Part shown: positions 18,142 to 60,764 of the stretch, in pieces | How positions within the stretch are numbered: the first letter of the stretch is position 1 | How the letters are laid out: every line of letters starts with the position of its first letter | IMG/VR virus record: IMGVR_UViG_3300022862_000263 | Source: a virus | Taxonomy: Duplodnaviria; Heunggongvirae; Uroviricota; Caudoviricetes | DNA length: 64,000 bases | Strand: one strand, 5' to 3' | Made by a program: the position numbers and the translations under genes | Notes under the pieces: model-generated | Seen by the model: the letters and a program-made list of their open reading frames with translations, nothing else | The model's database searches: none | Told to the model about the DNA's origin: nothing

Positions 18142-20937
<2,796 letters not shown>

Positions 20938-33770: not shown

Positions 33771-34511
33771 TCATTCTTCACATTCATCACGCTCGATAGG
33801 CTCTTCTACAGACTCGGCAGGTTCGACTACGCCGACGACAAACTCCGGGCGAAGCGACCAGAAAACGCCTTGAATAGTTTTTGCCTCAAAGTCGTACGTG
33901 AAGTCATTTTTCAGGTCAAGGCTGAAGATTTGATTCCAACCAGCCTGCACCCGGCTATGGAACGGCTCTGGAACAGGGACGTCATCGTATAAGCTCAAGT
34001 CTGCAGCTGCTAGCTCGGCCTCAAACTGGGTTGATTCAGGCTCATCAAGCATGCACCAGTAATTGAGCGGAGCGTGCCACATGTAGAAGTCGGAAAGCAG
34101 AAGTTGATCCTTTGGCAGGCTGAGCTCAAGCAGTACGTCACCTGGCTGGCTACCTTCTGCCGAAGGCTTTACCCTTTCTCCCCAAAGTGAAATCCAACAC
34201 CACCATGGCGTGATGCCTGGCTTACGCCCAGGGAGGCCCGCACTATCCATGGACTCCTTCATCCAATCATATGCGATCTTGAAGTAAGTGGAGTCCTCCG
34301 CCAGATCAGCAGGGCACTCCTGGATTTGACCATCGAGGATTTCCGATACGATACCGGGAGGAACAAACATCCATGCTGTGATTCGGCCATCCTCGTTCGC
34401 GTAATGATCGCACCATTTTTTCCGTGTTTTAATCAAGTTTTGGCCCAAGGAAACCTCCACAAAGGCAGCCCTGCATTCGCAGGGAGTGTCCGACGGGGCA
34501 GGGTCGCTCAC
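33771..34511 (-). CDS. hypothetical protein
   Basis: 246-aa Trp-rich ORF. Confidence 0.4.
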   Translation of the reverse strand: MSDPAPSDTPCECRAAFVEVSLGQNLIKTRKKWCDHYANEDGRITAWMFVPPGIVSEILDGQIQECPADLAEDSTYFKIAYDWMKESMDSAGLPGRKPGITPWWCWISLWGERVKPSAEGSQPGDVLLELSLPKDQLLLSDFYMWHAPLNYWCMLDEPESTQFEAELAAADLSLYDDVPVPEPFHSRVQAGWNQIFSLDLKNDFTYDFEAKTIQGVFWSLRPEFVVGVVEPAESVEEPIERDECEE

Positions 34512-34790: not shown

Positions 34791-36110
34791 TCACAGGCCC
34801 AATTCATCCACAAACAACCTAGCGCGATCTTTTCCACTTAACGCACTGAGTAAATCACGTCGGTGCTCTGCCAGGTAGCTCGTCAGAAGCGATTTACTCA
34901 GGCCCTTGGCTGCCTTGTACTGCACCTCCAGATCGACATGGGGCTCCAGCAGGTCGACCAGCCTCATTTTTTGCGAAAGGGCACAGTCTTGCTCTTTAAT
35001 TTTGGCAACCCACGAGACTAGGGTCTCAAACAATCGGTCAAAGACCTTTTCCTGCAGCGGCAGCTCATTCTCAAAGCGCAGAGAATCCAGCTCCATCAGG
35101 AAGGCCTGCAGGTTGCTCGTGATTTTCGACACGGTGGAGGCAGCCGACAGACCTTTGGTGGGTCGCTTCAACTGCTCGCGCCAAACTTCCGGGCTTGCCA
35201 TCAAGGTTCTAAGCGCCAGCTGTCGAGCATATTCATCGTTGAAAAGGTACACATCACGAGGCTTATTGCCTCTAGTATTTCTAAGCAGTGACGTCAACTC
35301 GCCTAAAATAAGCCATGCCTTTGTATTAAACAGCTGAATTTTGTGGGCTGAATTTGCATAGAGAATGGACAGCGGGTTGACGATATCTTCCAGACGCGAG
35401 CGCCTCGCATCTTCACTCAACTCCGGAATGTCACCTGCACTGCCAGTCGTTTCGTGAGTCAAGAACCTATACGATAGATTCATCAAGGTCTGATAACCAC
35501 CAGGCTGGTTAAGCTTGAGGAACATATCGTCCAGCAGGCCAAGTGTCTCCTCCTGGGTTTTTTCTGGAGGGAGCACCCCGCGCTTAACCGCTGAATGCGC
35601 GAGCGCCAGCAGGATCATGTACTGATTGCGGTTACCGGTTGTCAGATAGTCAAAAAGTTGGCTATCCGGATCTAGCTTAAGACTTGTTCTTAAAGATTCG
35701 AAAAAACTTGTTATTGCCTCAACCTGATAGCTCTCGGTAACACCTGTCTTCATGAAACCATTTGCCAGGTTCTCAAGCCAGCGCTGCGGTGCCAACGTCG
35801 CCATCTTGGGCAGATGGTAGGCGGCAAGCATCGCTGCGGTTGCCGGTATTTTTTTGGAGGCTTTCAGCATGAAGCTCAAGAACAAGTGGTTGTTGCCTCG
35901 GTCGTATACCCCTGTATCAGTAGACTTCAGCCTATCCATTACATCGGCTACTCCTTCCAGGTCAGCGGTCTCTGACTGATTTTGATAGGCGAAGCCAAGT
36001 GTATAGGCGACCCAGGAGTGAGCTGCGGTCAGTTGATGTTCGCCCAGATCTGCGACTGTCTGTTCGGTGAATTCAGCGAGATCTACCGCTACGATTCTTT
36101 CTTGTTGCAT
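34791..36110 (-). CDS. hypothetical protein (439 aa), downstream of helicase
   Basis: Long ORF. No P-loop detected. Confidence 0.4.
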   Translation of the reverse strand: MQQERIVAVDLAEFTEQTVADLGEHQLTAAHSWVAYTLGFAYQNQSETADLEGVADVMDRLKSTDTGVYDRGNNHLFLSFMLKASKKIPATAAMLAAYHLPKMATLAPQRWLENLANGFMKTGVTESYQVEAITSFFESLRTSLKLDPDSQLFDYLTTGNRNQYMILLALAHSAVKRGVLPPEKTQEETLGLLDDMFLKLNQPGGYQTLMNLSYRFLTHETTGSAGDIPELSEDARRSRLEDIVNPLSILYANSAHKIQLFNTKAWLILGELTSLLRNTRGNKPRDVYLFNDEYARQLALRTLMASPEVWREQLKRPTKGLSAASTVSKITSNLQAFLMELDSLRFENELPLQEKVFDRLFETLVSWVAKIKEQDCALSQKMRLVDLLEPHVDLEVQYKAAKGLSKSLLTSYLAEHRRDLLSALSGKDRARLFVDELGL

Positions 36111-36372: not shown

Positions 36373-38175
36373 TTATTTCGCCTGAACTGCGGGCGGCCCA
36401 ACCCAATTCAGTGCAACGTGAGCTGCCCGGCACTGAGTGACGTCCAATTCATACTGGGCACGGGTCAAAGCAACGTAGAAGATCCTTGCCTCTTCAGGGG
36501 TGAAAGGAATTTTAGATTTTTCGGCGTCGTTTTGTGGGAAGGCGAAGTCATCAGCAAGCCGAACAGAAGGGAATTGCAGACCCTTTGCCTTGTGAACCGT
36601 TGAGATAGTGACATCCGCCTCGGCCTGGCTGACTTTGTGAACCGCATTCAGCGCTACTAGCAGCTCTTGGGGCGGCCAGGTTTCGATAAGCTTCACCAGG
36701 GTGGCCAACTCAGCCCCAACCTCTGTCTCAGAATAATCGATAAGCTCATTCCAGTTGTCGAACATCTGGAAGTCGGGAGAGCGTGGGCGTCTATGTTGCA
36801 TCAGGCTAATGCAAGACTCTACCTCGGTGATGAGTGTGGAGACATCCCCGGCCATGTGCACCTTCTTGCCGAGCTTCAGGGCATCCATAAGCTCGCTGAG
36901 CGCACCCTTGTTGCCACGGCATAGAATCGCCTTGGGATTCGGGACTTCACATAGTCTTGATTCAACCATGGGAGACCCAACGATTTTGAAAGACGTTTCT
37001 CCTAGAAAATTCTGCAGAACCCGGTTGGCAATTTCTGCTACAGGTTGCCCATAACGGAATGACCTGGTGAGATCGCAAGTCTGATCAGTAGTGATTGCGT
37101 CCATGGCGTTCACAGCTCCGCGCCAGCCATAGATCTGCTGCCGGCGATCACCTACCCAAATGACCTGACAGGGCTGTTCCATTATAACTTTCAGGACTAC
37201 CTTCGAAGTGTCCTGAGCTTCATCGAGTAGGATGAAGTCACAGCCGAGCACTGGTCTGCTGAGTGCCCAGATCTTCAGGTAGACATCCGGCCAGATAGGA
37301 AGGGTGCCATTCACATCACTGAGCATACGCCAAAGCATAGCCGCTAGTGGGCCTAGCTTGGACGCTATGGGTTGGGCTGCAAGATAGGCTTCTTTGCGAT
37401 CACCTTTTTTGGTCATCTTGTAGAGGATGGGCCATGGTGCTGAATCAAGGTCGAGCTGCTGGGAGGCGCCATGAGTAAAATTGGCGACCCACTGTCGAAT
37501 AACGTTGGCCTGTTCGTATTTTGAGATCCCGTCGAAGTCGCTGAGGTGCAACGCATCAATGATGATTTTGCTAGCCAGGTTCTTTTTCTGAATCCGATGA
37601 CTGAAGGGATGCCCGGCGCCCTCATAGGCCACAGAGTGGGTTGTCCGGCAGTGGGTGTTCTGGCTGAAGCGTGAAGAAGCCTCTTTGATGATGTCTTTGT
37701 TGAAGGCCAGGTAGAGTCCCTTCCTTTTGCCCATGTTCAGACTGATCGCTGATAGCCCGCTGGTTTTTCCTGAACCGGCGCCAGCCTCCACCTTCAGGCT
37801 ACATCCCGAGACGGCGTGCTCGACAGCCTGCTGTTGCTCATCGGTAAGCGGGTGGTCGCCCAGTTTGAAATTCCTGGGGTTTGACTGCAAAGGTGGAGCT
37901 TTCAGTCGGTTTAGTGCCGCCATGGCTGGGGACGGCGGTAATAGGATGGGTGCTTGAGCCGCTGTCAATTCCGGCATCGGGGCTTGATCCAGCTTACCAT
38001 CAGCGGTCGTCTGGTAAAGGTCTGACATCCCGATTTGAGCAATCAATGACTTGCTGGTTGCTTGAGCATATAGCTGATCGGCCTTTTTCAGCGCGTCGCG
38101 CAGCCTGGCGTTTTCAAGCGCCAGCTTCCGGATGGTGTCGGTGTGATTTGCTGCCATGCGACGGCACCTGAACAT
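36373..38175 (-). CDS. SF1 UvrD/Rep-like DNA helicase
   Basis: 600 aa. Walker A AGAGSGKT. Motif II ILLDEAQD. UvrD-type motifs throughout. Confidence 0.7.
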   Translation of the reverse strand: MFRCRRMAANHTDTIRKLALENARLRDALKKADQLYAQATSKSLIAQIGMSDLYQTTADGKLDQAPMPELTAAQAPILLPPSPAMAALNRLKAPPLQSNPRNFKLGDHPLTDEQQQAVEHAVSGCSLKVEAGAGSGKTSGLSAISLNMGKRKGLYLAFNKDIIKEASSRFSQNTHCRTTHSVAYEGAGHPFSHRIQKKNLASKIIIDALHLSDFDGISKYEQANVIRQWVANFTHGASQQLDLDSAPWPILYKMTKKGDRKEAYLAAQPIASKLGPLAAMLWRMLSDVNGTLPIWPDVYLKIWALSRPVLGCDFILLDEAQDTSKVVLKVIMEQPCQVIWVGDRRQQIYGWRGAVNAMDAITTDQTCDLTRSFRYGQPVAEIANRVLQNFLGETSFKIVGSPMVESRLCEVPNPKAILCRGNKGALSELMDALKLGKKVHMAGDVSTLITEVESCISLMQHRRPRSPDFQMFDNWNELIDYSETEVGAELATLVKLIETWPPQELLVALNAVHKVSQAEADVTISTVHKAKGLQFPSVRLADDFAFPQNDAEKSKIPFTPEEARIFYVALTRAQYELDVTQCRAAHVALNWVGPPAVQAK

Positions 38176-38369: not shown

Positions 38370-38717
38370 GTGAACACTCATAAGTTGCATGACGAATACA
38401 GTAGGCAAGCTCATAGCTTGGTAGCCTCAAAGCTTCGTGCAAATCCAAGCTTAATAAATATTGCGAAAAGAAATCTCCTAGAGATATCTAAAGAGTTGCC
38501 GAAGAACTCGGTAACTGTCATGGAGTGGGAGATTATTCTTAAGTGTAATATTGACAGTATTTGTGACTTCATTGTTCAGAATAATGACCACCTTCAAGAA
38601 CTTCGGCAATCATCTCCGTTTTCTGGGATGATTACCACAGAGGAACGGAGAAACCTGCGTGAAAAGATCTTCTCTAGAACATCTGATTCGAGTAGCGAGC
38701 CAAATTACAGGCGATAA
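38370..38717 (+). CDS. hypothetical protein, low-GC cassette gene 1
   Basis: 115 aa, AT-rich. Overlaps the next ORF by 59 nt in another frame. Confidence 0.35.
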   Translation: MNTHKLHDEYSRQAHSLVASKLRANPSLINIAKRNLLEISKELPKNSVTVMEWEIILKCNIDSICDFIVQNNDHLQELRQSSPFSGMITTEERRNLREKIFSRTSDSSSEPNYRR

Positions 38718-39585
38718 TGAAATTCTCATAATAGGGAGTCAAGCGTTTCACGGAGCCTCTAGGTCTTTGCCAGACGCTGTCGAAAGATCAATTGAGGCTG
38801 ATTTAGCGTTAGTAAACCTTCCTGAGAAGTGGGAAGATATCGATGGGGCTATTGGGGAAGACTCAAATTTTTTCACCCTTCATCGTTATTATGCCCAAGG
38901 GGTGAGCGCGGATACGGCAATTTTACCACTAGGATGGAAAGATAGACTAAATTATATAAATAATGAGAATACTGGCGGCGCCACCGGGTGCTGTATTGGT
39001 ATATATGACCTTGTACTGTCTAAGTATTGCGCGGAACGAGAAAAAGATTTTGAGTTTATTTCCGAAATAATTAGCATGGATATGCTGGATCAGAGTACCT
39101 TGAGTGATCTTGCGGGCGATCTTCCAGTCGACGAATATAGGATTGATAGGATACGAGGATTTATTGAAAGGGATTTTAGACTGCAGAAGGCTAACGAAAA
39201 AGGACGTCAGATAGAAAGGATGGAGTTGTCGCTGATCGCAAAAATAGCAAATGTTGATGATCAATTGCCAATTAGATTAATTGGTGCAAGGAAGTCTCAG
39301 TACGGAATTGCTGGAATGCTTAACGAGATATGCCTAGACGATGAAGCTTTGTCGGCATCTATTAGAAAATATAACGACATTTTGGTTGATGATTTGTCAG
39401 CAATATCAAAAGCCTGGGCTGAACTGAAGAGTCTTAATCCGAATATTCAACTTCAAATAGACTCAATTGCCCAGAAAGCAGAAAATATAGCCAGGATGGT
39501 TTCAACCCAGTCATTAGAGAAGTCGATGCCAGAAGATTTGTTTGTTAAGCCTGAAAATGATGGCGATAACTTAACTCCAAATTAG
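38659..39585 (+). CDS. hypothetical protein, low-GC cassette gene 2
   Basis: 308 aa. N-terminus HLIRVASQITGDNEILIIGSQA is reminiscent of nucleotidyltransferase-fold or DUF proteins. Uncertain. Confidence 0.4.
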   Translation: MKRSSLEHLIRVASQITGDNEILIIGSQAFHGASRSLPDAVERSIEADLALVNLPEKWEDIDGAIGEDSNFFTLHRYYAQGVSADTAILPLGWKDRLNYINNENTGGATGCCIGIYDLVLSKYCAEREKDFEFISEIISMDMLDQSTLSDLAGDLPVDEYRIDRIRGFIERDFRLQKANEKGRQIERMELSLIAKIANVDDQLPIRLIGARKSQYGIAGMLNEICLDDEALSASIRKYNDILVDDLSAISKAWAELKSLNPNIQLQIDSIAQKAENIARMVSTQSLEKSMPEDLFVKPENDGDNLTPN

Positions 39586-39687: not shown

Positions 39688-40134
39688 TTAACCATTCTTA
39701 GAATCATTTATAAAATTTTCAAGCTGTAATTTTCTGATATTCATGCTTTCGATCATGACTTGCAGACCAGGCTGATTGGGTTTGTTTTCCAGTAGACTGG
39801 TATACGAAGAAATAACACCGTTTACTTTATGTAGTATCCCTGGGGCTCGATCTATTCCTGTCGAGTTATCCCACGGCATCGAAGGCAATTTGCGATTAGG
39901 GTCGGCCATGAATGTGTGGGCCCAGTCCTGGGTGTATGAGCATGCCGGGCAAACCCAGCCGTCCTTGGTAGCGATCAGCGTGCCTCGATCACCACCCTCA
40001 TCACCATGCCCAGGATCACTGCGGTTCTTGCAGGTGAATGGGTGGAAGGGCATCCCATTGCAGGTGGCCGTTTGGTACTCGTTAAGCGCCTGAACAGACT
40101 CTGGAGAGAACGGAGCTGTGATCTTGTTGGACAT
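39688..40134 (-). CDS. hypothetical Cys-rich protein, last gene of the radical-SAM operon
   Basis: 148 aa. CNG..C...CPAC patches. Confidence 0.4.
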   Translation of the reverse strand: MSNKITAPFSPESVQALNEYQTATCNGMPFHPFTCKNRSDPGHGDEGGDRGTLIATKDGWVCPACSYTQDWAHTFMADPNRKLPSMPWDNSTGIDRAPGILHKVNGVISSYTSLLENKPNQPGLQVMIESMNIRKLQLENFINDSKNG

Positions 40135-40164
40135 TTTGAAAGCCTCTAAAATTTTGTTGGTGAT

Positions 40165-41088
40165 TCAATTCGGTGGGTTGATCAACGATGCCCATTGCGG
40201 CCCGACAGCTTCGCCAGCTGATCTCATTGATCGAGAGACCATGAGTTTTCCAAGGCCAGACCTTTCCAGATCGTTGTGCAGGTTCGTTAGCTGGCCATGA
40301 TCGAGCGTATCACCAGCCCTCTGCAAAAGTTTGACGACTCTTTTGCACCCGCCCGCAATGGAGAGGAGGGCAGTCTGCACAGCAGCTGTAAGCTCGCCAT
40401 GTGTCCACAGGTACTCGGACAATACCGCAAGGGATTCTGGCTGCTTCATCTCATGAGCGTTGATGAGGCGCTCAACGCAGAGCCTGCCTTCATCACCTGG
40501 CTTGCCGGCCATCAGTACGCCAAGAAGGTATTCTGAATAGACATGCCCCTCGGTAGCAAGGGCCTTGAGCGCCTGGATGGTCTCACTGCCAGCTTCCATT
40601 TGCGGACTGAATGCCGACACTGGCTCCAGCTTGGAGCACCCGGTAAAAGCAGCCTTGAATCGCACTGCGAGCTTGGCTTTGTGGTTGACCAACAGCTTGG
40701 AGTACGAAAGCCCAAAATTACGCATGGCGTAAATGTGATACGAATGATACTGGCCTAAGTCTGGGTCAGTTTCTTCTGCCAGCGCATTCGCCTGCAGGTC
40801 AGAAACCAGCATGGTTTCAGTAGAGCCTGGCAGCTCAATCATCAGCCGAGAGTTGTCGAAGGTCATCGCCAACTCCTCAAAAGCCTTGACCGAGCAGACC
40901 ACCCCCACATCCTCGGGGGACAAAGGGAAGACGAGCATATGATCAGCCCGATCTCGACCTGAGATTCTGTATTTTTCGGATGGCTCAAGGAACTCCCGGC
41001 AGTTGAATTTTTTAAATCCGATTTCCCAGTCACGCCCGAAAATTTTGATCGTAAAGCGCTTGGAGCTAGCTAAATTTGTGGCTTTCAT
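40165..41088 (-). CDS. hypothetical protein, operon gene 5
   Basis: 307-aa ORF, 31 bp from the next gene. Confidence 0.4.
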   Translation of the reverse strand: MKATNLASSKRFTIKIFGRDWEIGFKKFNCREFLEPSEKYRISGRDRADHMLVFPLSPEDVGVVCSVKAFEELAMTFDNSRLMIELPGSTETMLVSDLQANALAEETDPDLGQYHSYHIYAMRNFGLSYSKLLVNHKAKLAVRFKAAFTGCSKLEPVSAFSPQMEAGSETIQALKALATEGHVYSEYLLGVLMAGKPGDEGRLCVERLINAHEMKQPESLAVLSEYLWTHGELTAAVQTALLSIAGGCKRVVKLLQRAGDTLDHGQLTNLHNDLERSGLGKLMVSRSMRSAGEAVGPQWASLINPPN

Positions 41089-41111
41089 CTATGGGTTTTC
41101 CAAGCGGATCT

Positions 41112-41915
41112 TTAATCGCAGCTGATGGTGCATACGGAGGCGTAAGCTATGTCGACACGGGGTATGGCTGTGTCTTGGTAAATAGCACGCTTTTCTTCGC
41201 GGAACCACGAAGAGTAAAAGTGCGCATTCTTGATGAACCTCAGCTCATTGAGGCAAAACTCTTTGAAGCTCAGGCTTGGATTGCCGTCCAGAAATTCCTT
41301 GTACATGTTGACGTACAAATCATCAAACCAGGTGGGCTCGAGAATCTGAAGCAGGTCAGCGTCGCGCAGGATGGCCTGGTATTCGTTCAGGGGTTCGCGT
41401 TTGAACGGGAATTGGGTGCTCTGCAAGGTCTCCAGTAGAAATGGGATATCTAAGAGTATCGGCTCATTGCTTTTGCGTAGGATGCCGGCATCCGCCAGGA
41501 AGATGTTAGCGATCATGATCGAGCGCGACACGTTCACAATGTCTGGCTCTTTAACGCCAGTGTGTGCGATGTCGTGAAACGCAGCGGCAAGGATCGTTGA
41601 GTTGATTTCCTTCTGCTGGGCCTCAGACAGATTCGCCAGGTCGCTCTTCAGATAGTGGCGCAGTCCCTGAATGGTGCCATCGACCACGCAGCACGTGTGA
41701 TACCAGTCATGATAAGGGCGCTTATGGCTGTAGTCCTCAAAGCGCTGATGAATGAGGTCAAATAGCTCCTGTGGATCAACACCATTGAGCTTGACCATCT
41801 CTGAGAACGCTTGCCGGGTGGCAACATGCTTCAAGATGCGGCTGGCTTCAGGATCAGGGCAGAGCAGCTTGTAGCCGAGCCGCTCTTTGACTCGTGCAAT
41901 GAGTTGCATGTCCAT
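41112..41915 (-). CDS. HD-domain phosphohydrolase
   Basis: 267 aa. H..HD (HDWYH) and a second FHDIAH motif typical of HD metal-dependent phosphohydrolases. Confidence 0.6.
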   Translation of the reverse strand: MDMQLIARVKERLGYKLLCPDPEASRILKHVATRQAFSEMVKLNGVDPQELFDLIHQRFEDYSHKRPYHDWYHTCCVVDGTIQGLRHYLKSDLANLSEAQQKEINSTILAAAFHDIAHTGVKEPDIVNVSRSIMIANIFLADAGILRKSNEPILLDIPFLLETLQSTQFPFKREPLNEYQAILRDADLLQILEPTWFDDLYVNMYKEFLDGNPSLSFKEFCLNELRFIKNAHFYSSWFREEKRAIYQDTAIPRVDIAYASVCTISCD

Positions 41916-41950
41916 ATCATGTTCCTTTAGGGATGAGCGCTTGGCGATAG

Positions 41951-42451
41951 CTATTCCAGATGAGGGCTGAGCTTGATCGATACGATTTCATAGCGAATCG
42001 GCTTGCCCCGCATAGGAAGTTCAACCTCGTCACCCACCGTCTTGTGGAGCAGCCGCTCACCAACGGGAGAGAGGTAAGAAACGATCCCTTTATCAGGATT
42101 GCCTTCCTCATAACCCAAGATCGAGTGCGTGCGCATCTCGCCATCTTCAGACTCAAGCTCCACTTCAACGCCTGGAAGAACCTCGTGAAAATCTTGATTC
42201 TGGATGTGCTCGCAATCATTGATCAGGCGGGCAAAACGGATGACGTTTTCCAGCTCCGCGATTTTGTTCGGCAGCTCGTAGGTCACCTTTGTGCGCAGCT
42301 GCATGAACTCGGGGTTCTCCCTAAGGTCGTTATCCAGGCTGGCTGAATGACCCATGGCACGGGTGGACTTTTCCAAGTCCTCGACGAGATCCTTCTGCCT
42401 GTTGGCCAAGTTCACCAATCCCTTGCGGGTGACGTAGTAAGCGGTAGACAT
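41951..42451 (-). CDS. GreA/GreB-family transcript cleavage factor homolog (Rnk/Gfh-like)
   Basis: 166 aa. N-terminal coiled-coil with acidic tip DLRENPEF (cf. GreA DLSENAEY). C-terminal FKBP-like domain GIVSYLSPVGERLLHKTVGDEV. Confidence 0.7.
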   Translation of the reverse strand: MSTAYYVTRKGLVNLANRQKDLVEDLEKSTRAMGHSASLDNDLRENPEFMQLRTKVTYELPNKIAELENVIRFARLINDCEHIQNQDFHEVLPGVEVELESEDGEMRTHSILGYEEGNPDKGIVSYLSPVGERLLHKTVGDEVELPMRGKPIRYEIVSIKLSPHLE

Positions 42452-42454
42452 GTC

Positions 42455-43030
42455 TTAATTCAACCAGGGTAGACGGGAGGCAGCGATTTTCAGCGCATCT
42501 TGCAGATCGTTGGTGCTGTTGTCGACAATGCAGAGATGCTCCCCCAGGCGCTGGAACTCGGCGAGGAAGCGATTGCGGATGCTGTTGTCATCCAGAACCT
42601 TGTCCAGATCGCTTTTGCCACGGACAGTGATTCGATCCTGGCGAACAGACTCGTCGATGTTGATGAATATGGTGGCGTCGGGTTCATGGATGTCATAACC
42701 CATGCCTTTGTACACCAGATCAACGTCCATGCCGGCAACGCGGTGAGATACTACGGTGTCGATCAGGTAACGAACGCAGTAAACGTTGTGGGTCTTGAGC
42801 TTCTCTTTGATTCGCTCAGAGGCGTAGGCAACTGCCGCCAAGTAGAATAGGAAGTGGGCAGACTGCGACCGGTCTCTTACCTCACTGTCGAACATCTCTC
42901 GGGTTTCGCCGAAGGGGCCATCCGGAGTCTTGAAAAGAAAGCCGTTGGGATCGAGCTTGCAAAGCTGTTCCGCCAGGCTCGAAGTCCCAGAGCCATCAAG
43001 CCCGGTGATGACAACCAGTTTTCCAACCAT
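42455..43030 (-). CDS. P-loop nucleotide kinase, thymidylate-kinase-like
   Basis: 191 aa. Walker A ITGLDGSGTSS. Tmk-like LID/NMP-binding layout. 4-bp spacing to the flanking genes. Confidence 0.6.
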   Translation of the reverse strand: MVGKLVVITGLDGSGTSSLAEQLCKLDPNGFLFKTPDGPFGETREMFDSEVRDRSQSAHFLFYLAAVAYASERIKEKLKTHNVYCVRYLIDTVVSHRVAGMDVDLVYKGMGYDIHEPDATIFINIDESVRQDRITVRGKSDLDKVLDDNSIRNRFLAEFQRLGEHLCIVDNSTNDLQDALKIAASRLPWLN

Positions 43031-43033
43031 TGT

Positions 43034-44920
43034 TTAAACTCCTGTGGTGTGACCAGGGATCACGGGGAAGCTGAGTGCATCCCGGATGGTGATCCGCTCG
43101 ATAGTTTCAGTTTTCAGGAAGAAGCGTTCCTTGGATTGCCCTTCTTCGGTGGCCGTCATGGCCAGATCCAGCCGTTCGACCAAGATCGAAGGGCTGTCCT
43201 TGTATGTGTTGCGTTCGCCACGTGCGCTGCTTGTCGAAGAAGCTCCAAGCACTGGTGCAACAGCAAGACGCCATGCCTCGCCTTCTTCGGCAAGCTCGCC
43301 GGTGAGGCCGAAGGCGCGCTCATGATTTGGAGTCAATGGCAAGTCAGGTCGTGAGGCGATGGCTTTGTATTCGTGATAAGCGCGGCCAAGGTTACAGATG
43401 TGCCCGGTGTCAACGCTGAGGTCTTTGTCAAAGAAGGCCGTAGACGGGTAGTTGGCGAGCTGCAGGACGCGCACGTAGCTTTTGAGCACCTCGACAACCT
43501 GCTCGCGGATGTATTCCGCAGCGCGTGGGTCGTTGCTGGTTACCGCGTCAGCCTGCTCATAGAGTGCTGTGATGATGCGTTCTACATCAGTCCATGTCAC
43601 ATTTTGCCCAGTGGACTTCGCCTGGATAAGCAGGTTCAGCAGGTACCGCTCGCCGTCGATGTAGCCTGACCCTGGGCGCTCATCGGTTTTAGGATAGAAG
43701 TACTTGGCAGTGATCCCGTCAGTCCGGCGCTCCGCATCAACGGCAAAATACTCGCCGTCTTCGTTCTGCAACCGGTGAAGCAGGGCATCGCGACATTGCA
43801 GTGATGGAGGCAGCGCGTTAGCCAAAGACAGGTCGGCGATCAGCGCCAGCATGTCATCCTGAATAACCTGCTCATGGCCGTAGATCAACCAGCAAGGATC
43901 ACCTGGTTGCGAGAGCTCGGTACCGTGGCTTTTCGCATCAGTAATGGTGGCGAACTCGAGGGTATGATGGGACGCTTTCTGCACTACCAGATAGGGGCCT
44001 GCGCGAAGCACACGATGCCCCTGAATTTCAGATACTTCGACTTCGGTTCGTACCACCAGCGGACGGAAACGCAATTCCACGCACGCGCCCTTGCGACCCT
44101 TACGCTCGGAGAGGAACGTACTGCGGTAGGTGTCGAGCATAACCGCGATGTCTTTCTCGAAGTTGTCACGGGACGCCGCTCCCACACGCTCGGCAGCCTG
44201 TGTCCAACCGTAGGTGTACGGAGAGAAAGACAAGCGCAGACCGGCAATTCCTGACATGAGGCTGCCACTGATTCGTTCGTGCATCGCCTGGATACCGGGA
44301 TTGAGCCGACTGTAGCCTACCGTTGCGATACGTACCTGTACGCCCAGATCTTCATGGAGCCACTGCACCAGATCGTCCAAGTGCGGGTAGGCGGCGGGAT
44401 CGTTGTCCAGGTAGCAGTAGATAACGCCAGGGCGATCATTGCGCTTGTTTCCGATCAGCCCGTGTTTCGGCATGACGAATCCCTGCTTGAACAAGCCGGA
44501 GCCGTCGAGTGGTTCTGCGCAAACATCGCCCTCTTCACGAGCCCAGGCGAGGGCTACCGTTTTCATCGCCGCCACCAGGTTGGCAAGATCACGGCGACTC
44601 ATGTTCCACAGCGTCGTGCCGGCGCTTTGACTGCAAAAGCTGCAACGATTGAGACAACCAACCTGCGTCTGGAAATGTCGCATCTTCTGTAGCGATTCAC
44701 GTGGCAGCGCCAGCAGCTGATCCACAAGCTCCTGTCGACGACGCTGGTCTTCATCCAGCACGTTTAGCCAGGTACCTTCGCTTTGCAGAGTAGCCAGGGG
44801 AGGTACAATGCCATCCAGACCGGTTTCCAAAGGGTCGAAAGGCCTACAAACGGCGGATTCGGTGGTAACACAAACATCGCCCATGGCTTCTAAATTCCGT
44901 TGAAGAGGTTGAATGCTCAT
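43034..44920 (-). CDS. radical SAM enzyme with ~280-aa C-terminal extension
   Basis: 628 aa. CLNRCSFC (C89-x3-C93-x2-C96) is the canonical 4Fe-4S/SAM motif. First gene of a tightly spaced six-gene operon. Start may be ATG 44920 or ATG 44884. Confidence 0.75.
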   Translation of the reverse strand: MSIQPLQRNLEAMGDVCVTTESAVCRPFDPLETGLDGIVPPLATLQSEGTWLNVLDEDQRRRQELVDQLLALPRESLQKMRHFQTQVGCLNRCSFCSQSAGTTLWNMSRRDLANLVAAMKTVALAWAREEGDVCAEPLDGSGLFKQGFVMPKHGLIGNKRNDRPGVIYCYLDNDPAAYPHLDDLVQWLHEDLGVQVRIATVGYSRLNPGIQAMHERISGSLMSGIAGLRLSFSPYTYGWTQAAERVGAASRDNFEKDIAVMLDTYRSTFLSERKGRKGACVELRFRPLVVRTEVEVSEIQGHRVLRAGPYLVVQKASHHTLEFATITDAKSHGTELSQPGDPCWLIYGHEQVIQDDMLALIADLSLANALPPSLQCRDALLHRLQNEDGEYFAVDAERRTDGITAKYFYPKTDERPGSGYIDGERYLLNLLIQAKSTGQNVTWTDVERIITALYEQADAVTSNDPRAAEYIREQVVEVLKSYVRVLQLANYPSTAFFDKDLSVDTGHICNLGRAYHEYKAIASRPDLPLTPNHERAFGLTGELAEEGEAWRLAVAPVLGASSTSSARGERNTYKDSPSILVERLDLAMTATEEGQSKERFFLKTETIERITIRDALSFPVIPGHTTGV

Positions 44921-44938
44921 AATGACTATTAGTATCCT

Positions 44939-45829
44939 ATGGCCATGAGTGAAGCCATGTCAAACAACCCTCTCGAAATTTTTGACTCCATTCGCAACGG
45001 CGCCGTGGTGCGCCGGCGCCTGCAATGGATCGAGGATCGCCTGTGGTGGGTTGGTGAGCTAAACCGCTCTGACCTCGTGCTGAGATTCGGAATCTCTCCA
45101 CCTCAAGCGACGAACGATTTTTCGCTCTATCAGAAGCTGGCACCGGACAACCTCAGGTATGACCCGAGGAAAAAGCTGTACGTGGCTGGTGAAGGGTTCG
45201 TGCCTCTTTTCCCTAAGGATCACGAGCTTTGGCTGAAGGACAATGCCACAGAGGACTCAAGCCTCAAGAGCGTCGACATGGTGGGTGTATCCTCGCTCAA
45301 GCGTGGGATCGATCCGGCATTGGTACGAAGCATCTCCATGGCTGCGAGGCACCGCATCCCACTTCGGATCGTGTATCAGTCAATGAAGGCGTCAAATCCA
45401 GAAGATCGTGTGATCAGTCCGCATGCCATCGTTGAGACTGAAGTGCGTTGGCATGTCCGGGCCTGGGATGAAAAGCGTCAGGCCTTTTTAGATTTGGTAC
45501 CCTCGCGGATTATCAAGGTCACTCCAGAGCCGGCTGCGACCTGGGTACCGCAGGAGCTCGATGAAGAGTGGAACCGAATGGTCGAGATCATCCTCGTCCC
45601 TTCAGCAAAGCTTTCTGAGAGCCAACGTCGCATTGCGGAAGGCGACTACCACATGATTGATGGCAGAAGGGTGCTGCAGGTGCGTGCCTGTATGGCGTAC
45701 TACCAACTCTCAGCGATGTATCTGGTTGACGCAGTGCGTTACCACGAAGGGCAGCCTGAAGAGCGTAACTTTGGAATCGCGGTGGAAAACTGGAAAGCTT
45801 TGCAGCCGCTGGTAATGGAGATGAACTGA
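44939..45829 (+). CDS. wHTH-WYL-domain transcriptional regulator (BrxR/CapW-like)
   Basis: 296 aa. N-terminal wHTH (LNRSDLVLRFGISPPQATNDF). WYL-domain signature ISPHAIVETEVRWHVRAWDEKRQAFLDLVPSRI. Divergent from the radical SAM gene. Confidence 0.6.
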   Translation: MAMSEAMSNNPLEIFDSIRNGAVVRRRLQWIEDRLWWVGELNRSDLVLRFGISPPQATNDFSLYQKLAPDNLRYDPRKKLYVAGEGFVPLFPKDHELWLKDNATEDSSLKSVDMVGVSSLKRGIDPALVRSISMAARHRIPLRIVYQSMKASNPEDRVISPHAIVETEVRWHVRAWDEKRQAFLDLVPSRIIKVTPEPAATWVPQELDEEWNRMVEIILVPSAKLSESQRRIAEGDYHMIDGRRVLQVRACMAYYQLSAMYLVDAVRYHEGQPEERNFGIAVENWKALQPLVMEMN

Positions 45830-46833
45830 TGGCGTTGACTTGGTCGGACTTGGCGATGATTCAAGAGCGCATGACGGAGTCGGCGGAGATTCGGTCAGCA
45901 GCCATTTTAGGAGCAGCGCCAGCCTCGGTATGGATTGCCTCCGGACTCGCGAAGATCTCCGCAGCCTATGGTGCGTCCTTGATCGAGCAATCCGTTGGGG
46001 CTCCCAGCCACCTGATTTCTGCCATGGACTACTGCGGAAAGCCGCTCTTGCGATCCCTCCCGGTACTGATCTCCATGAAGGGTCGTCATCAGGATGCCAT
46101 AAGTGTGGCCAAATCCATCGTCCATCGAAACTCGCCGGCGTCCGTCTTGATCACGGGGGATACCGATGGGCCTGCCGCACAGGTTCTCAACACGGGTGTC
46201 CAGGCATCGTGTGTGGTCTCAGCAGGATATCCGGCTCGAGATAGCAGGTTCGTGAATTGCGGCTCGATATTCATGCTTTCTGCGTTGGCCTATCAGCTGA
46301 ATAGGCAGGCCTTTGGCGATGATGTGATTGGCACAGTCGATAAGGGTAGCTTGGCGCAAGCGTTCTCACGAGCAGCGGAGGGTGCACATGCAATTGCTCA
46401 GGGTATCTCCACTACAGAATGCTGGGAACAAAAACAGCTCATCATCCTTGGTCAGGGGCTTGGATCAGAGCTGACATTGCCATGGCAATCGATCTTCGCA
46501 GAGGCGGGGATTCTGACTGCAACGTGCCTGGATCTGAAGGACTACACACACGGCGATCACCTTGCTGCCGTACGTTCAAATAATGCTATCTACCTGGTGA
46601 TTCAACAGCCAGGCACTGAAGACATGGTTCAGATTTTTAAATCTAGATTTACCGCGAGATTCCCAGTATTGGTGGCGCCGCTGGAGTCATCAGGGCCGAC
46701 GAGGTTCTGGGAGAATTTGTTCTACAGCTGCAACGTCGCTCATGCGCTGACTGACCTGCTTGGTTACGGTGGCCAGCGCCCACCAAAGGATCCAACTGTC
46801 CATAGCTGGCGAGGGTGGGGTAGTTTGTGTTGA
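45829..46833 (+). CDS. hypothetical protein, possibly double-SIS-domain-like. Translationally coupled to the WYL gene
   Basis: 334 aa. ATG overlaps the WYL stop (ATGA). Gly/Ala-rich Rossmann-like segments weakly reminiscent of SIS/AgaS-like proteins. Confidence 0.35.
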   Translation: MALTWSDLAMIQERMTESAEIRSAAILGAAPASVWIASGLAKISAAYGASLIEQSVGAPSHLISAMDYCGKPLLRSLPVLISMKGRHQDAISVAKSIVHRNSPASVLITGDTDGPAAQVLNTGVQASCVVSAGYPARDSRFVNCGSIFMLSALAYQLNRQAFGDDVIGTVDKGSLAQAFSRAAEGAHAIAQGISTTECWEQKQLIILGQGLGSELTLPWQSIFAEAGILTATCLDLKDYTHGDHLAAVRSNNAIYLVIQQPGTEDMVQIFKSRFTARFPVLVAPLESSGPTRFWENLFYSCNVAHALTDLLGYGGQRPPKDPTVHSWRGWGSLC

Positions 46834-47545: not shown

Positions 47546-48091
47546 TTGGAAAATCCTGCATTCATTGTTGCCATGGTCTCAACCATTGGCTTTGGCTTGT
47601 ACACGCTCGTGGCCAGTGTGCTCGGCGACCATCACAGCGGTAATGGCAGTCATCATGGCGGGCATGGCAGCGCAGAAGGTTGGGCCATGCTTGAGTACAT
47701 CTCAGTTCAAGCCATTTTGCTCGCCATGATGAGCTACAGCTGGAGCTGGCTGTACTGGGCAACAGTCACTAATGGGGTGCTCTTGCAAAGCGTCGCAACG
47801 CTGCTATCGGGCTCCGCAATGGTGGCTCTCTATGTTGGCGGCATGCGCCTGATCAAGAAGCTAAATACCCCTGAATCACATCCAGAATTTGAACCTGCGG
47901 TCGGTATGCAGGGCGTCGTTTACTTGACGATTCCGCCTGCCGGCGAAGGCTTTGGTCAGGTCACTCTCCGCGACCCACAGTTGGGTGACTTCCAGGTCAA
48001 TGCAACCTCCCATGAGGAGGAAATCGAATCAGGCAGTCTTGTCGTCGTCTCCGAGACAGGTCAGCTGAGTGTAAAAGTCCGTCGAGTTTGA
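47546..48091 (+). CDS. NfeD-family membrane protein (short form)
   Basis: 181 aa. N-terminal transmembrane helices plus a C-terminal OB-fold-like region. Immediately upstream of the flotillin gene. Confidence 0.6.
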   Translation: MENPAFIVAMVSTIGFGLYTLVASVLGDHHSGNGSHHGGHGSAEGWAMLEYISVQAILLAMMSYSWSWLYWATVTNGVLLQSVATLLSGSAMVALYVGGMRLIKKLNTPESHPEFEPAVGMQGVVYLTIPPAGEGFGQVTLRDPQLGDFQVNATSHEEEIESGSLVVVSETGQLSVKVRRV

Positions 48092-48149
48092 TCCTTCCCG
48101 CCTGCCGGGAAGCTGGCAGGCATTACTCTGCTATGTAGGTGGAACGCGA

Positions 48150-49637
48150 ATGTTAGATAACGCTGCAACGATCATGTTCTGGCTCCTCCCGGTGATCATT
48201 GTGATCGCCCTGGTGATGACGTATCTGAAGAACTACATCATCTGCCCGAACGACAAAGTTATGGTGGTTTATGGTGCCGGTTCCAGCTCGGCGCAAGGCG
48301 CGAAGATCATTCATGGTGGTGGGCAGCTCGTAGTGCCTTGGTTGCAGCGTTCTGCCTTCCTGAGCCTGAAACCCATGTCGATCCCTGTCGACTTGAAGGG
48401 GGCTTTGAGCGCCAACAACATCCGCGTGAACGTGCCGAGCCAATTCACGATCTCCATTGCGTACAAAGACCAGGCGCTGATGCAGAACGCGGTGCGTTAC
48501 CTGCTTGAGCAGACTGAGGCGCAAATTAAAACAACCGCTGGGGAAATCATTTTCGGCTCACTTCGATCCGTTGTTGCGACGCTCACAATCGAGGAGCTGA
48601 CGCGGAATCGCGATAAGTTCATCAATGCGATCAATGTCAACATTGACGCAGAGCTTAAAAAAATCGGCTTGACGCTGATCAACAGCAACTTGATGGACAT
48701 CACCGACGAATCCGGCTTTATCACTGCTATGGGGCAAAAGTCTGCGTCGGAAGCTGTGAATAAAGCCAACATCGAGGTTGCCGAACAAGAGCGTCTTGGT
48801 GCTATCGGTGTAGAGGAGAACAACAGTAAACGCAACATTAGTGTGGCTGAGCAGGAAACATTATCCAAAGTTGGTGTCAGTGCCGCTGAGCGCGACCGTG
48901 AAGTTCGTATTGCTGCGCTCAAAGCAGAAACACAAAAAGGTACCAACGACTCTCAGGCTGACATCGCCGACTCCAACGCTGCCCTCGCGATTCGAGAAGC
49001 TGATGCTCATGAAAAAGGCGAGGTGGCCAAGGCAAAGGCAGCGACTACTATCGCCAATGAGCAGCGCCTGGCAGAGCAGGCAGAGTTGTCCAAGCAACAG
49101 TTGCCTGCAGCTAACGTTGCAAAAGAGCAAAAGGTGATCGAGGCCGAGGCGGAAGCTGAGAAATCTCGCATCATCGCCAAAGGTGAGGCGGACGCTATTC
49201 TTGCCAAGTTTACTGCTGAAGCTAACGGCCTGAGATTGAAGTTAGAAGCCCAGGCGGAAGGCTACAGAAAGATCGTTGAGTCGGTTGGCGGCGATACTAA
49301 CGCGGCAGCTAAGCTCATGATGATTGAGCAGGCGACTGACATCGTCAGGATTCAGAGTGAGGCCCTGTCAAATCTGGTTATCGATCATGTAACTGTGTGG
49401 GACTCCGGATCAGGTAACGATGGTCTGCAAGGCTTCATTCGAAACTTCGCGTCTTCGCTTCCACCGCTACATGAGATCTGTAAACAAGCCGGTATTGAGC
49501 TTCCAGCCGGATTTATGGGGTCGCAGTTGAAAGATCCTAAACATGCAATTACCAGGGAGCCAGCGCAGGCAGCTACAGAACCAGAGTCAGCTGCTGCGTC
49601 GGAAGCGATTGATGAACTGCCTTTAAGTAAAGGTTGA
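48150..49637 (+). CDS. SPFH/band-7 flotillin-like protein (YqiK/FloT-like)
   Basis: 495 aa. N-terminal TM, SPFH domain, long Ala/Glu/Lys-rich coiled-coil (EA-repeat-like). Confidence 0.8.
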   Translation: MLDNAATIMFWLLPVIIVIALVMTYLKNYIICPNDKVMVVYGAGSSSAQGAKIIHGGGQLVVPWLQRSAFLSLKPMSIPVDLKGALSANNIRVNVPSQFTISIAYKDQALMQNAVRYLLEQTEAQIKTTAGEIIFGSLRSVVATLTIEELTRNRDKFINAINVNIDAELKKIGLTLINSNLMDITDESGFITAMGQKSASEAVNKANIEVAEQERLGAIGVEENNSKRNISVAEQETLSKVGVSAAERDREVRIAALKAETQKGTNDSQADIADSNAALAIREADAHEKGEVAKAKAATTIANEQRLAEQAELSKQQLPAANVAKEQKVIEAEAEAEKSRIIAKGEADAILAKFTAEANGLRLKLEAQAEGYRKIVESVGGDTNAAAKLMMIEQATDIVRIQSEALSNLVIDHVTVWDSGSGNDGLQGFIRNFASSLPPLHEICKQAGIELPAGFMGSQLKDPKHAITREPAQAATEPESAAASEAIDELPLSKG

Positions 49638-50839: not shown

Positions 50840-51538
50840 ATGGACGAGCAATCCGCTGCGCCGAAGAGACCCTTCAAGCCAAAACCCTACGATTCGCTGC
50901 TTGGCACCATGTCTGACCAAGATCTTGCGAATGCCACCGGTGTATGCAACCGAACCATTGGCGCTAGACGAAAACTCCTTGGGGTCGAGGCCTGGAGCGT
51001 GGAGGTTGCACTTACCCCGCATATGCACCTGCTAGGCATTCTTAGTGACAAAGAAATTTCAAATATCAGTGGGGTAGGAATTTCCAGCGTCACCAAGTAC
51101 AGGAAGGAAAACGACATCCATCCACATCCGTTGGCTGAATTCGTACCGCTGCTTGGGCATGTAACCGATGAGGACGTTGCCAGGGTTTCTGAAATGCCTT
51201 TGGCATTAGTGGAAAAGACTCGTTGCATACTTGGTATCGAGGAGCTGGTGGTTGAGCTCAGCGATCCGATCCATATCGACAATTACGAAGGCCCTCTTCT
51301 TGGCTTTGAATCGCTCCTCACGACACAAACTATCGTGGAGATTCACCGTGAAACTGGCATTCACTGCTCGATTATCGAGCGCCGACGTGACTTCTTGGAA
51401 CTGCCAGTATTTCAGCGCAAATCTAAGCTGGAACCTTACAAGCACCTTGTTGGCATTGTCCCAGTACCGCTGCTTGCAAAGCTCGTTGGTCTGTCAGGGT
51501 CAAGAGTGCGACAGTTGAGTAAGCCTACAGAAGATTGA
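50840..51538 (+). CDS. multi-HTH-repeat protein, paralog 1 (flanks the Abi gene)
   Basis: 232 aa. 3-4 tandem ~35-aa repeats of LLG.LSD.EI...GV....V..YRK (HTH-like). Paralogous to 53258..54073. Palindrome tggccatc-catcat-gatggcca lies just upstream (50793-50814). Confidence 0.45.
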   Translation: MDEQSAAPKRPFKPKPYDSLLGTMSDQDLANATGVCNRTIGARRKLLGVEAWSVEVALTPHMHLLGILSDKEISNISGVGISSVTKYRKENDIHPHPLAEFVPLLGHVTDEDVARVSEMPLALVEKTRCILGIEELVVELSDPIHIDNYEGPLLGFESLLTTQTIVEIHRETGIHCSIIERRRDFLELPVFQRKSKLEPYKHLVGIVPVPLLAKLVGLSGSRVRQLSKPTED

Positions 51539-52072
51539 GCCCTGGTCACTCGGCAATCAGAGCTGCTGCAGCTCGTCGCGCTTTCAGGAAATCGATCATC
51601 ATTCCCGGCGCTTGAACTTAGGTAGAAAACGCGTTTTGAGTTTCTCCGGTTGATTTGGGCAGGCTGACGATCTCGATTTCCTCCTAGAGATGCTCACGAC
51701 AAACTGGTGGTTCTAACAGATTGCCCCGAATCGCCACCCGCGAAGCGGCTACATGCTGAAAGGTGAAGCAGTCGCGCATCTGTTTCTGCAGCATCCCTAT
51801 CAGCGATACCCTATGGCCTGATTCAGGATGCGAATGCGCAGTGTCCATCTATCACCTCTTGACCTTGGCGAATTTACAGGTTGGAACTGCAGCTTGAAAG
51901 CGGGGATCGCCGCGTGAGGCGGCTTGGATGCGTGGGTAACGAGTCTTGTGTGTATTTCAGAAACGAAAACCCCGGCTCAAGGCCGGGGCGGGTGTTTCGT
52001 GGTCTTTGCAGGGAGTCGTAAGCTTTCGCTCATTGGAGCTCAGTGCCAACCGATTCTCAATCCTACGAGCGG

Positions 52073-52101
52073 TTGACACCGATGTCAACCCCCTTTATAC
52101 A
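52073..52101 (+). promoter_or_regulatory. sigma70-like promoter TTGACA-17-TATACA with overlapping palindrome gttgacACCGATgtcaac
   Basis: TTGACA at 52073-52078, TATACA at 52096-52101. Perfect 6-bp inverted repeat at 52072-52089 overlaps the -35. AGGAAG RBS, then ATG 52128. Confidence 0.5.
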
Positions 52102-52127
52102 GGCACCTTGCCAGTAGGAAGTCGAGC

Positions 52128-60727: not shown

Positions 60728-60764
60728 TTAGGATTTTAAATGTTGGCTGTTATTTGACTTTTAG

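Follow-up and report, generated by a model that had tools for sequence, protein, structure and literature searches.

The 64,000-nucleotide (nt) stretch of the Caudoviricetes record IMGVR_UViG_3300022862_000263 analyzed here (the window) carries a minus-strand operon headed by a gene for a radical S-adenosylmethionine (radical-SAM) enzyme, which is followed by genes for a P-loop protein of the thymidylate kinase (Tmk) fold, a GreA/GreB-type factor, a probable HD-superfamily phosphohydrolase and two proteins of 307 and 148 amino acids (aa). A plus-strand pair, encoding a WYL regulator of the BrxR/CapW family and a tandem-SIS protein, diverges from it (Table 1). The conserved unit is formed by the three leading genes together with this two-gene regulator and not by the six genes of the operon, and we describe it as a candidate defense system that is apparently undescribed. 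All six minus-strand open reading frames (ORFs) reported by a first-pass annotation of the sequence, from 43034-44920 down to 39688-40134, are found in the window. Their tight spacing also holds, with gaps of 3, 3, 35, 23 and 30 nt; the gaps of 4, 4, 36, 24 and 31 nt given previously are coordinate differences, each one too large.

Table 1 Features of the operon and of the divergent regulator pair, with positions in the window
Feature	Coordinates	Strand	Remarks
Radical-SAM enzyme gene	43034..44884	-	616 aa; longest ORF to 44920 (628 aa)
Tmk-fold P-loop protein gene	42455..43030	-	191 aa
GreA/GreB-type factor gene	41951..42451	-	166 aa
Probable HD-superfamily phosphohydrolase gene	41112..41915	-	267 aa
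307-aa protein gene	40165..41088	-	no family match
148-aa protein gene	39688..40134	-	last of operon; four Cys
BrxR/CapW-family WYL regulator gene	44939..45829	+	296 aa; start maybe a few codons later
Tandem-SIS protein gene	45829..46833	+	334 aa; start overlaps regulator stop
Promoter-like site and imperfect palindrome	44916..44963	-	upstream of the radical-SAM gene

The family of the radical-SAM enzyme is rare and scattered. When one genome per species was scanned, relatives were detected in 126 of 185,579 species (about 0.07%), patchily distributed over at least five phyla and comprising Proteobacteria, Clostridia, Bacilli, Mollicutes, Actinomycetes, Saccharibacteria and others. The family is found in one of 2.9 million viral contigs and in none of 50,697 phage records. 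ORFs were called in 84 loci and searched with iterated hidden Markov models (HMMs) built from the window proteins. The Tmk-like protein is encoded in 35 of the 84 loci, a second Tmk-like type being present in 13 actinobacterial ones, and the Gre-like factor in 34. The regulator and the 334-aa SIS protein were each recovered in nine (five regulator genes lie no more than 3.5 kb from the radical-SAM gene), the HD protein in a single locus, and the 307-aa and 148-aa proteins in none. In all proteobacterial loci whose flanks are complete, and also in many Firmicute and Saccharibacteria ones, the genes for the radical-SAM enzyme, the Tmk-like protein and the Gre factor stand side by side. Their clustering is thus not a matter of chance, and the components do co-occur well beyond the source genome. 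Gene order varies (rSAM-Tmk-Gre, rSAM-Gre-Tmk, Tmk-Gre-rSAM or Tmk-rSAM-NADAR-Gre(-CYTH), where rSAM denotes the radical-SAM gene). The three core proteins have diverged together, as judged by the correlation of their pairwise-identity matrices (r = 0.88-0.96; 30 loci, Mantel p <= 0.001). Like the enzyme family itself, the subfamilies of Gre, SIS and Thr-type Tmk proteins have few members, and each is specific to the system.

In Proteobacteria the trio never occurs without a divergent BrxR-type WYL regulator and a tandem-SIS protein. Three Pseudomonas genomes (L095-L097) carry the regulator, the 334-aa gene, the radical-SAM, Tmk-like and Gre genes and a 267-aa gene, and nothing further, and the core three genes stand alone in Vibrio, Yersinia and the metagenomic locus L090. 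The earlier proposal of a six-gene operon is retained as regards a co-transcribed and conserved multi-gene system whose core consists of the radical-SAM, Tmk-like and Gre genes. A six-gene system was rejected, because the HD, 307-aa and 148-aa genes are not conserved among the relatives.

The partners that accompany the enzyme elsewhere are informative in terms of its substrate. Among the 84 loci, NADAR domains occur in 48, NUDIX in 24, CYTH in 21 and ATP-grasp in 20, and about 16 loci have a DHH-NADAR fusion. An aminotransferase is also a partner, and NADAR stands alone or forms a fusion with DHH, Gre or the radical-SAM enzyme. Fusions of the types NADAR-rSAM, rSAM-NUDIX, NADAR-Gre, NADAR-DHH and BrxR-SIS were observed. 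All these partner families process nucleotides or sugar phosphates, and NADAR, CYTH, DHH, NUDIX and ATP-grasp point to a nucleotide substrate. The NADAR-Gre fusions are about 310 aa long (L020, L036, L048), and NADAR can be appended to either end of the radical-SAM enzyme (L004, L009, L039). The NADAR-DHH fusions, of about 430 aa, occur in L054 and some 15 other Bacilli loci, in which a LysR regulator lies upstream, an Mbeg1-like gene is sometimes present and the Tmk-like and Gre genes are absent.

The enzyme itself comprises an N-terminal radical-SAM partial barrel with the cluster motif CLNRCSFC, as annotated before, and a C-terminal region of some 300 aa that is peculiar to the family. Its CxxxCxΦC motif within a partial TIM barrel places it in the radical-SAM superfamily, with a Pfam radical-SAM score below threshold (16.5 bits). 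Of 114 homologues, 108 carry the form CxNxCxFC, and the other six are mostly shorter sequences. In the alignment the C-terminal 300 residues or so are rich in invariant polar residues; no structural match to them was found. The same alignment contains no extra invariant cysteines, and thus no auxiliary cluster, the cysteines of SPASM/twitch clusters being absent. The family consists of 114 clusters at 90% identity, all named 'hypothetical' and bearing Pfam domains only where NADAR or NUDIX is fused. No family was found for the window protein in Pfam, NCBIfam, PADLOC or PHROG, and a profile search of the alignment against the sequences of solved structures returned chance matches only. In structural comparison the top match is the peptide epimerase EpeE, with SkfB, SuiB, ChlB and anSME next, and the fold also resembles small-molecule and nucleotide enzymes, e.g., viperin and BlsE.

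The start codon assumed previously, which gives 628 aa, was rejected. The database protein 100% identical to the enzyme is 616 aa long, a promoter-like site and leader precede the ATG at 44884, and the upstream ATG frame meets a stop in the Stenotrophomonas locus, so that 44884 is most likely the true start. A plasmid search returned only two truncated Streptomyces fragments of the protein, located beside NUDIX genes; an independent domain family was considered and rejected for these fragments, which we judge to be remnants. On a Streptomyces globosus plasmid (L085, 5983-7136), a 172-aa ORF, similar to the enzyme over residues 457-610 only, is followed by a NUDIX gene near an IS630 transposase, and is probably the truncated remnant of an actinobacterial rSAM-NUDIX pair.

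The second core protein matches PF02223 in Pfam (8e-16, 58.7 bits versus a cutoff of 27) and aligns with yeast Tmk over residues 3-178. In PADLOC it matches PDC-M51B (6.5e-23) and VakA (6e-16), and in NCBIfam its score against the Tmk equivalog TIGR00041 is 56 bits, under the cutoff of 83. The P-loop glycines, the Tmk-specific Asp and the lid arginines are kept, and about 34 homologues show almost no change in the motifs VITGLDGSGT and YCVRYLIDT or in the lid RQxRIxxRG. However, the Walker-A lysine is replaced by threonine (GLDGSGTSS), which sits at the position of this lysine in yeast Tmk, and DRY is replaced by VRY. Both substitutions are shared by the Tmk-like proteins of all system members, which read GLDGSGT[ST][ST] and VRY. 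Among the best 150 matches in 1.84 billion representatives the Thr form occurs in 16, nearly all of them among the closest, with GK[ST] in the distant ones. In P-loop kinases, ordinary ATP-dependent phosphotransfer becomes doubtful once the Walker-A Lys and the DRY Asp are both lost. As both are missing here, the protein probably either binds nucleotides as a pseudo-kinase or is an enzyme of an atypical kind. The first-pass annotation was hence right about the Tmk fold, and the phosphorylation that it ascribed to this protein is doubtful for every member of the family.

The Gre-like protein carries both Gre domains (PF03449 and PF01272 in Pfam), that is, a full coiled coil and a C-terminal globular domain, and the acidic tip highlighted in the earlier annotation is confirmed: the D-x-x-E motif is intact within DNDLRENPEF, and an alignment with GreA and GreB of E. 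coli pairs this tip with GDLKENAEY of GreA. Across 35 homologues from several phyla the tip reads DNDLRENPE[FY] with hardly any variation, and the factor is probably active. It scores 70.9 bits against the GreA equivalog TIGR01462, half of the cutoff of 139, and is far under the cutoffs of all Gre equivalog models. This low score identifies it, at the level of sequence, as a dedicated, system-specific paralogue that retains the catalytic tip. Its subfamily is small (86 clusters at E<=1e-10), with many members on contigs equal in size to radical-SAM-bearing contigs. The Pfam scan revealed no evident ligand-binding domain in its 166 aa. The idea that the factor delivers a compound to RNA polymerase is one of several readings.

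The divergent WYL regulator noted earlier is confirmed (WYL domain, 6e-10 in Pfam; WYL models are also matched in PADLOC) and can be assigned to the BrxR family. In the matching metagenome contig L088, whose radical-SAM gene is 100% identical, the regulator has WHD_BrxR, WYL and BrxR_CTD domains, and the same three are recorded for the regulators of L001, L086, L087, L090 and L095-L097. The protein thus displays the winged helix-turn-helix (wHTH), WYL domain and BrxR C-terminal dimerization domain of BrxR/CapW regulators and lies next to its candidate defense cargo. The BrxR family has been associated with defense islands and its members have been described as repressors (PMC9122601; PMC12392091), a role for which the latter also cites PMC11662680. 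The previous gene inventory missed the protein encoded immediately downstream, which has a tandem SIS fold (phosphosugar-binding or isomerase), is translationally coupled to the regulator and is fused to it in Vibrio, Yersinia and Atlantibacter. Its family is small (69 clusters, many on contigs equal in size to radical-SAM-bearing contigs). Nothing was matched in Pfam, NCBIfam, PADLOC or PHROG, and a profile search of its alignment against solved-structure sequences gave chance matches only.

Between the two divergent units lies a promoter-like site for the operon, TTGACA-18 nt-TAGGAT at 44963-44934, which matches at 10 of 12 positions and is the best in the region. Downstream of it, at 44932-44916, is the imperfect palindrome CTAATAGTCATTATGAG. 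This promoter/palindrome block is conserved in the window and in L089, L090, L095, L086 and L087. The palindrome is perfect in L090, and the perfect form ATGGCCAT lies within the block conserved across genera. The palindrome is a candidate BrxR operator for the operon. The -35 element TTGACA overlaps the first codons of the regulator gene, being the reverse complement of ...ATGTCAA... within the segment encoding MAMSEAMSN.

The remaining genes of the operon are variable. The HD protein is weakly matched in Pfam (PDEase_I 1.4e-4, 22 bits versus a cutoff of 24.8; HD 0.03, 15 bits). Support for its annotation as a phosphohydrolase comes from a PHROG phosphohydrolase family (3e-17) and from its best solved-structure matches, PDE7A/PDE4, around YHxxxH...HDxxHxG, with YHxxxH and HDIAH aligned to PDE7A. 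At its metal site it looks like a class I cyclic-nucleotide phosphodiesterase, and it appears to be a lineage-specific accessory. The gene is present in L089, the closest metagenomic relative (94% identity), in Stenotrophomonas L086 (71%), in L007 and, as a 267-aa gene in the corresponding place, in Pseudomonas L095-L097. Its position is taken by a NYN+OST-HTH protein in P. oryzihabitans (L087) and by two unknown paralogues in P. putida (L001), and it is absent in L090, L002 and L091. The 307-aa protein has no match in Pfam, NCBIfam, PADLOC or PHROG, and neither loci L001-L084 nor the accessory genes of L086, L087 and L089 include a homologue of it. In L089 the HD gene directly precedes the homologue of the 148-aa gene, with no 307-aa gene between them, so the 307-aa gene appears to be an insertion specific to the window; it is probably co-transcribed with the operon. 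As for the 148-aa protein, the description 'Cys-rich' applies only in the sense of four cysteines arranged as C-x9-C ... C-x2-C, a zinc-ribbon-like pattern read from the translation. No family was matched in the same four libraries, and the homologue in L089 (74% identical) is the only one. A G+C-rich hairpin and the convergent plus-strand gene lie 3' of this gene.

The surroundings of the relatives bear out the defense and mobile-island setting suggested earlier. They adjoin BREX, Shango-like, Gabija-like, RmuC and McrBC genes, on islands with integrases, insertion sequence (IS) elements and relaxases. In P. oryzihabitans (L087) the neighbors are BREX and GmrSD in an integrase/relaxase island. 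Another locus lies in a P4-like island with an integrase, AlpA and DUF3987, beside TerB, a BrxC/D-like ATPase and a helicase. An RmuC-domain protein (Pseudomonas), an OLD-TOPRIM and UvrD pair (L090), McrBC and a Piwi protein are further neighbors. The window itself encodes Shedu-, HipA-, GmrSD-, ART/Fic-, DUF6036- and UvrD-like genes on a chromosomal backbone marked by gyrA, cmk and dciA. Taken together, the earlier idea of a defense module is partly supported, and the combination of genes, which the first-pass annotation did not recognize, is described neither in the libraries nor in the full-text literature searched, most subscription papers lying outside that search. A Moraxellaceae WYL paper and a BrxR paper (PMC12392091, PMC9122601), consulted by term search, do not mention the radical-SAM/Tmk/Gre module.

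The module shares features with several known systems. The resemblance to prokaryotic viperins (pVips) stressed earlier holds for the context, namely a radical-SAM enzyme beside a Tmk/Cmk-fold protein in defense islands, with a modified nucleotide acting on transcription as the expected product and a match of the Tmk-like protein to VakA, the PADLOC model mentioned above. It does not extend to the viperin family. The enzyme is twice the size, with a unique C-terminal domain, and is neither a single-domain protein of about 300-350 aa nor specifically closest to viperin in structure. Viperin membership was rejected because no viperin model is among the PADLOC matches, no NCBIfam or Pfam family is matched and profile search finds no solved-structure relative, and the classification as viperin, MoaA or QueE left open before ends, in profile scans, with no curated family at all. 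Moreover, the kinase-fold protein, unlike the pVip kinases, has neither the Walker-A Lys nor the DRY Asp. To our knowledge, a Gre factor, a BrxR and SIS pair or NADAR/CYTH/DHH partners have not been reported for pVips. The PADLOC candidate system PDC-M51 is also similar, in that its component B, a Tmk-like model of 191 positions, matches the full length of the Tmk-like protein (79.5 bits). In contrast, component A matches only 22 residues around the cluster motif (11.3 bits) and is not hit at all by seven family proteins or by the matching segments of three related loci, and PDC-M51 has no Gre component. Membership was therefore rejected; the literature searched does not mention PDC-M51.

The clusters for oxetanocin A (OxsA/OxsB) and 4'-thiothymidine (ThmABC) are likewise compact, mobile and composed of a radical-SAM enzyme, a nucleotide kinase-fold protein and a nucleotide phosphohydrolase. 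In OxsA/OxsB the hydrolase is an HD enzyme that processes or detoxifies the analogue. ThmABC comprises a radical-SAM enzyme, an AbmG-like nucleoside kinase and an NTPase giving self-resistance, and is mobile among Enterobacterales and Vibrio (PMC12691670). Compared by published composition, a Gre factor stands here in place of that NTPase. With GreA/GreB, to which Rnk, Gfh1 and DksA are secondary-channel relatives, the factor shares both domains, the full-length coiled coil and the acidic tip. Unlike GreA/GreB it belongs to a paralogous subfamily that is encoded only beside this radical-SAM family and is sometimes fused to NADAR. Gre C-terminal domains are noted with other partners in further conflict systems (TPR-GreA/B-PIN; PMC9503650). 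The regulator resembles BrxR/CapW proteins in its wHTH-WYL-CTD architecture, its divergence from the cargo and the conserved, palindrome-bearing promoter region. It differs from the BrxR regulators described in PMC9122601 and PMC12392091, as far as a term search shows, in being translationally coupled or fused to a tandem-SIS phosphosugar-binding protein.

Based on the above data, we tentatively favor a horizontally mobile defense-island module under a BrxR-type repressor that combines a nucleotide poison with Gre-dependent proofreading, a proposal to which we give slightly less than even credence. Gene content, motifs, folds, co-inheritance, fusions, rarity and genomic context are seen directly in the sequences, whereas for substrate, product, Gre function and defense phenotype we infer the following. 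Upon derepression of the operon, the radical-SAM enzyme would turn a nucleotide into a modified nucleotide, a substrate suggested by the partner families and by the lack of an auxiliary cluster, and this product would poison the nucleic-acid synthesis of the invader. The Tmk-like protein would bind, present or sequester the modified nucleotide, and the Gre factor would couple the system to the host RNA polymerase. In its favored role, the factor would stimulate the cleavage of host transcripts ending in the analogue and thereby excise the latter, such that the multi-subunit polymerase of the host recovers and the phage polymerase does not. We favor this protective proofreading because the catalytic tip is conserved and because the role would discriminate between host and phage polymerases. 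The variable hydrolases (HD here; NUDIX, CYTH, DHH and NADAR elsewhere) would trim or detoxify the product. Lastly, the SIS protein may sense a phosphosugar or a nucleotide and feed back on expression.

Several observations weigh against this mechanism. The triphosphate-making step expected from the viperin/CMPK2 analogy appears to fail, as the Tmk-like protein is without its two catalytic residues. The radical-SAM gene occurs without a Gre gene in 50 of the 84 loci (Actinobacteria; LysR-type Bacilli loci), which argues that the chemistry of the enzyme is independent of Gre. Cells already own housekeeping GreA and GreB, and the need for a private copy is unexplained. The NYN RNase found as the fourth gene in one locus fits an effector better than a detoxifier, and the actinobacterial and some Firmicute versions, with ATP-grasp, aminotransferase and LysR/XRE regulators, look more like small biosynthetic clusters. 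The peptide epimerase EpeE as best structural match of the enzyme is a further discordant point. In a bolder variant, which is possible and rather less probable, the module would represent a new class of bacterial immunity exerted via the RNA polymerase secondary channel. A radical-SAM enzyme of a new family and a catalytically remodeled Tmk-fold partner would make a modified nucleotide, and the Gre factor would be required for the effect of this nucleotide on transcription or for immunity to it, by proofreading host transcripts selectively or by delivering the compound to the active site or locking it there. The BrxR-SIS regulator would sense a sugar-phosphate or nucleotide signal.

The resemblance to biosynthetic clusters leads to the most serious rival, in which a small cluster makes a nucleoside-analogue antibiotic against competitors, the hydrolases and Gre conferring self-resistance, as in ThmABC or OxsA/OxsB. 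ThmABC is a precedent for a mobile cluster with self-resistance through an NTPase (PMC12691670), and the actinobacterial and Firmicute relatives are accompanied by ATP-grasp, aminotransferase, acetyltransferase and major facilitator superfamily (MFS) genes and by LysR or XRE regulators. Yet no exporter is conserved with the core in the loci examined, and the proteobacterial versions are always placed under a BrxR-family regulator, inside defense islands or P4-like hotspots. Moreover, the kinase and the third gene of Thm are of other kinds (AbmG-like, and an NTPase rather than Gre; PMC12691670), and no Photorhabdus protein is among the named radical-SAM homologues. We thus regard an antibiotic cluster as unlikely. 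Still less likely, in our judgment, is abortive infection with Gre as the effector, in which the radical-SAM/Tmk pair would make a nucleotide ligand and the Gre factor would shut down the host RNA polymerase from the secondary channel. By analogy, and with the same low expectation, it might act like DksA with ppGpp or like Gfh1. This reading would account for the self-sufficient three-gene core of Vibrio, Yersinia and L090, where no other candidate effector is seen, and for a system-specific Gre subfamily whose tip is more invariant than defense proteins usually are. The partners with phosphodiesterase (PDE)-like HD, DHH and CYTH domains belong to families that make or degrade signaling nucleotides, and a BrxR-type repressor would suit the control of a toxic system (PMC9122601; PMC12392091). 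However, an intact D-x-x-E tip is needed by an active cleavage factor and not by an inhibitor, most loci outside Proteobacteria and Clostridia have the radical-SAM gene without Gre, and the Gre protein shows no evident ligand-binding domain in the Pfam scan.

The structural matches raise the question of whether the enzyme modifies a macromolecule, such as the Gre tip, RNA polymerase or an RNA 3' end. EpeE and the peptide- or protein-modifying SkfB, SuiB, ChlB and anSME, the unusual invariance of the tip and a large C-terminal domain that could be a protein-recognition module would be consistent with this. We nonetheless consider it very improbable, as the enzyme has no SPASM/twitch auxiliary-cluster cysteines, the 50 loci without Gre have NUDIX, NADAR-DHH or ATP-grasp partners instead, and the fusions are to the nucleotide-processing NADAR and NUDIX and not to peptide-binding domains. 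A housekeeping function in core metabolism (tRNA/rRNA modification, cofactor maturation), with an ordinary GreA and Tmk as chance neighbors, hardly deserves credence. It is true that the Gre and Tmk folds are housekeeping folds, but the distribution over 126 of 185,579 species, patchy over at least five phyla, effectively refutes this alternative, which the first-pass annotation had raised against its own proposal. The setting in islands with integrases, IS elements and relaxases, the Gre and Tmk scores far under the equivalog cutoffs, the loss of the catalytic residues of the Tmk-like protein and the failure of the enzyme to match any curated radical-SAM family also speak against it.

If the favored proposal of a nucleotide poison with Gre proofreading is correct, the signature enzyme of a defense system sits in no curated family, and new radical-SAM nucleotide chemistry and a new natural nucleotide analogue become possible. 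A private Gre-type factor would be seen in immunity for the first time, and the system would bear directly on how cells that produce chain-terminating or toxic nucleotides protect their own polymerase and on whether secondary-channel factors can serve to tell transcription of the host from that of a virus. Two further curiosities can each be tested, namely the BrxR-SIS pair and a Tmk fold that has invariably lost its catalytic Lys and Asp, and a compact system of three to six genes, present in Pseudomonas, Vibrio, Yersinia and Stenotrophomonas, lends itself to easy cloning and testing.

Other genes surround the operon in the window. Beyond its 3' end, three minus-strand genes encode a UvrD/GajB-like helicase at 36373-38175, a 439-aa unknown at 34791-36110 and a DUF3841 protein at 33771-34511. 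In L089, too, the operon has downstream genes for a helicase (93% identical) and for a DUF3841 protein, and the helicase/DUF3841 set looks like a separate conserved neighbor module. No GajA-like partner was seen. Inserted between operon and helicase, and absent from L089, is a plus-strand pair at 38370-39585, in which a DUF6036 nucleotidyltransferase gene (38659-39585) overlaps a 115-aa ORF (38370-38717). Its G+C content of 0.405 versus 0.52 for the window is low, and it looks like a toxin-antitoxin-type pair.

Farther away, a HipA kinase toxin gene (14126-15379), a gene for a 569-aa protein whose C-terminal domain is of the Shedu SduA type (15428-17137) and one for a short protein that begins with a GmrSD N-terminal domain (25484-26035) are found beside the core genes gyrA (18142-20937), cmk (22791-23564) and dciA (26074-26529). 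On the other side, directly beyond the SIS gene, a 181-aa ORF and a gene for an SPFH/Band-7 flotillin-like protein of 495 aa occupy 47546-49637, and the same pair is located at 170-2252 in L088. Unannotatable ORFs follow at 50840-55258, upstream of an ART-PolyVal ADP-ribosyltransferase-like gene (55790-56401) that adjoins a Fic/DOC gene (56414-57439). The block 59000-64000 is of low G+C content (about 0.40), contains three large ORFs without Pfam match (562, 468 and 432 aa, the last on the minus strand) and may be another acquired island segment.

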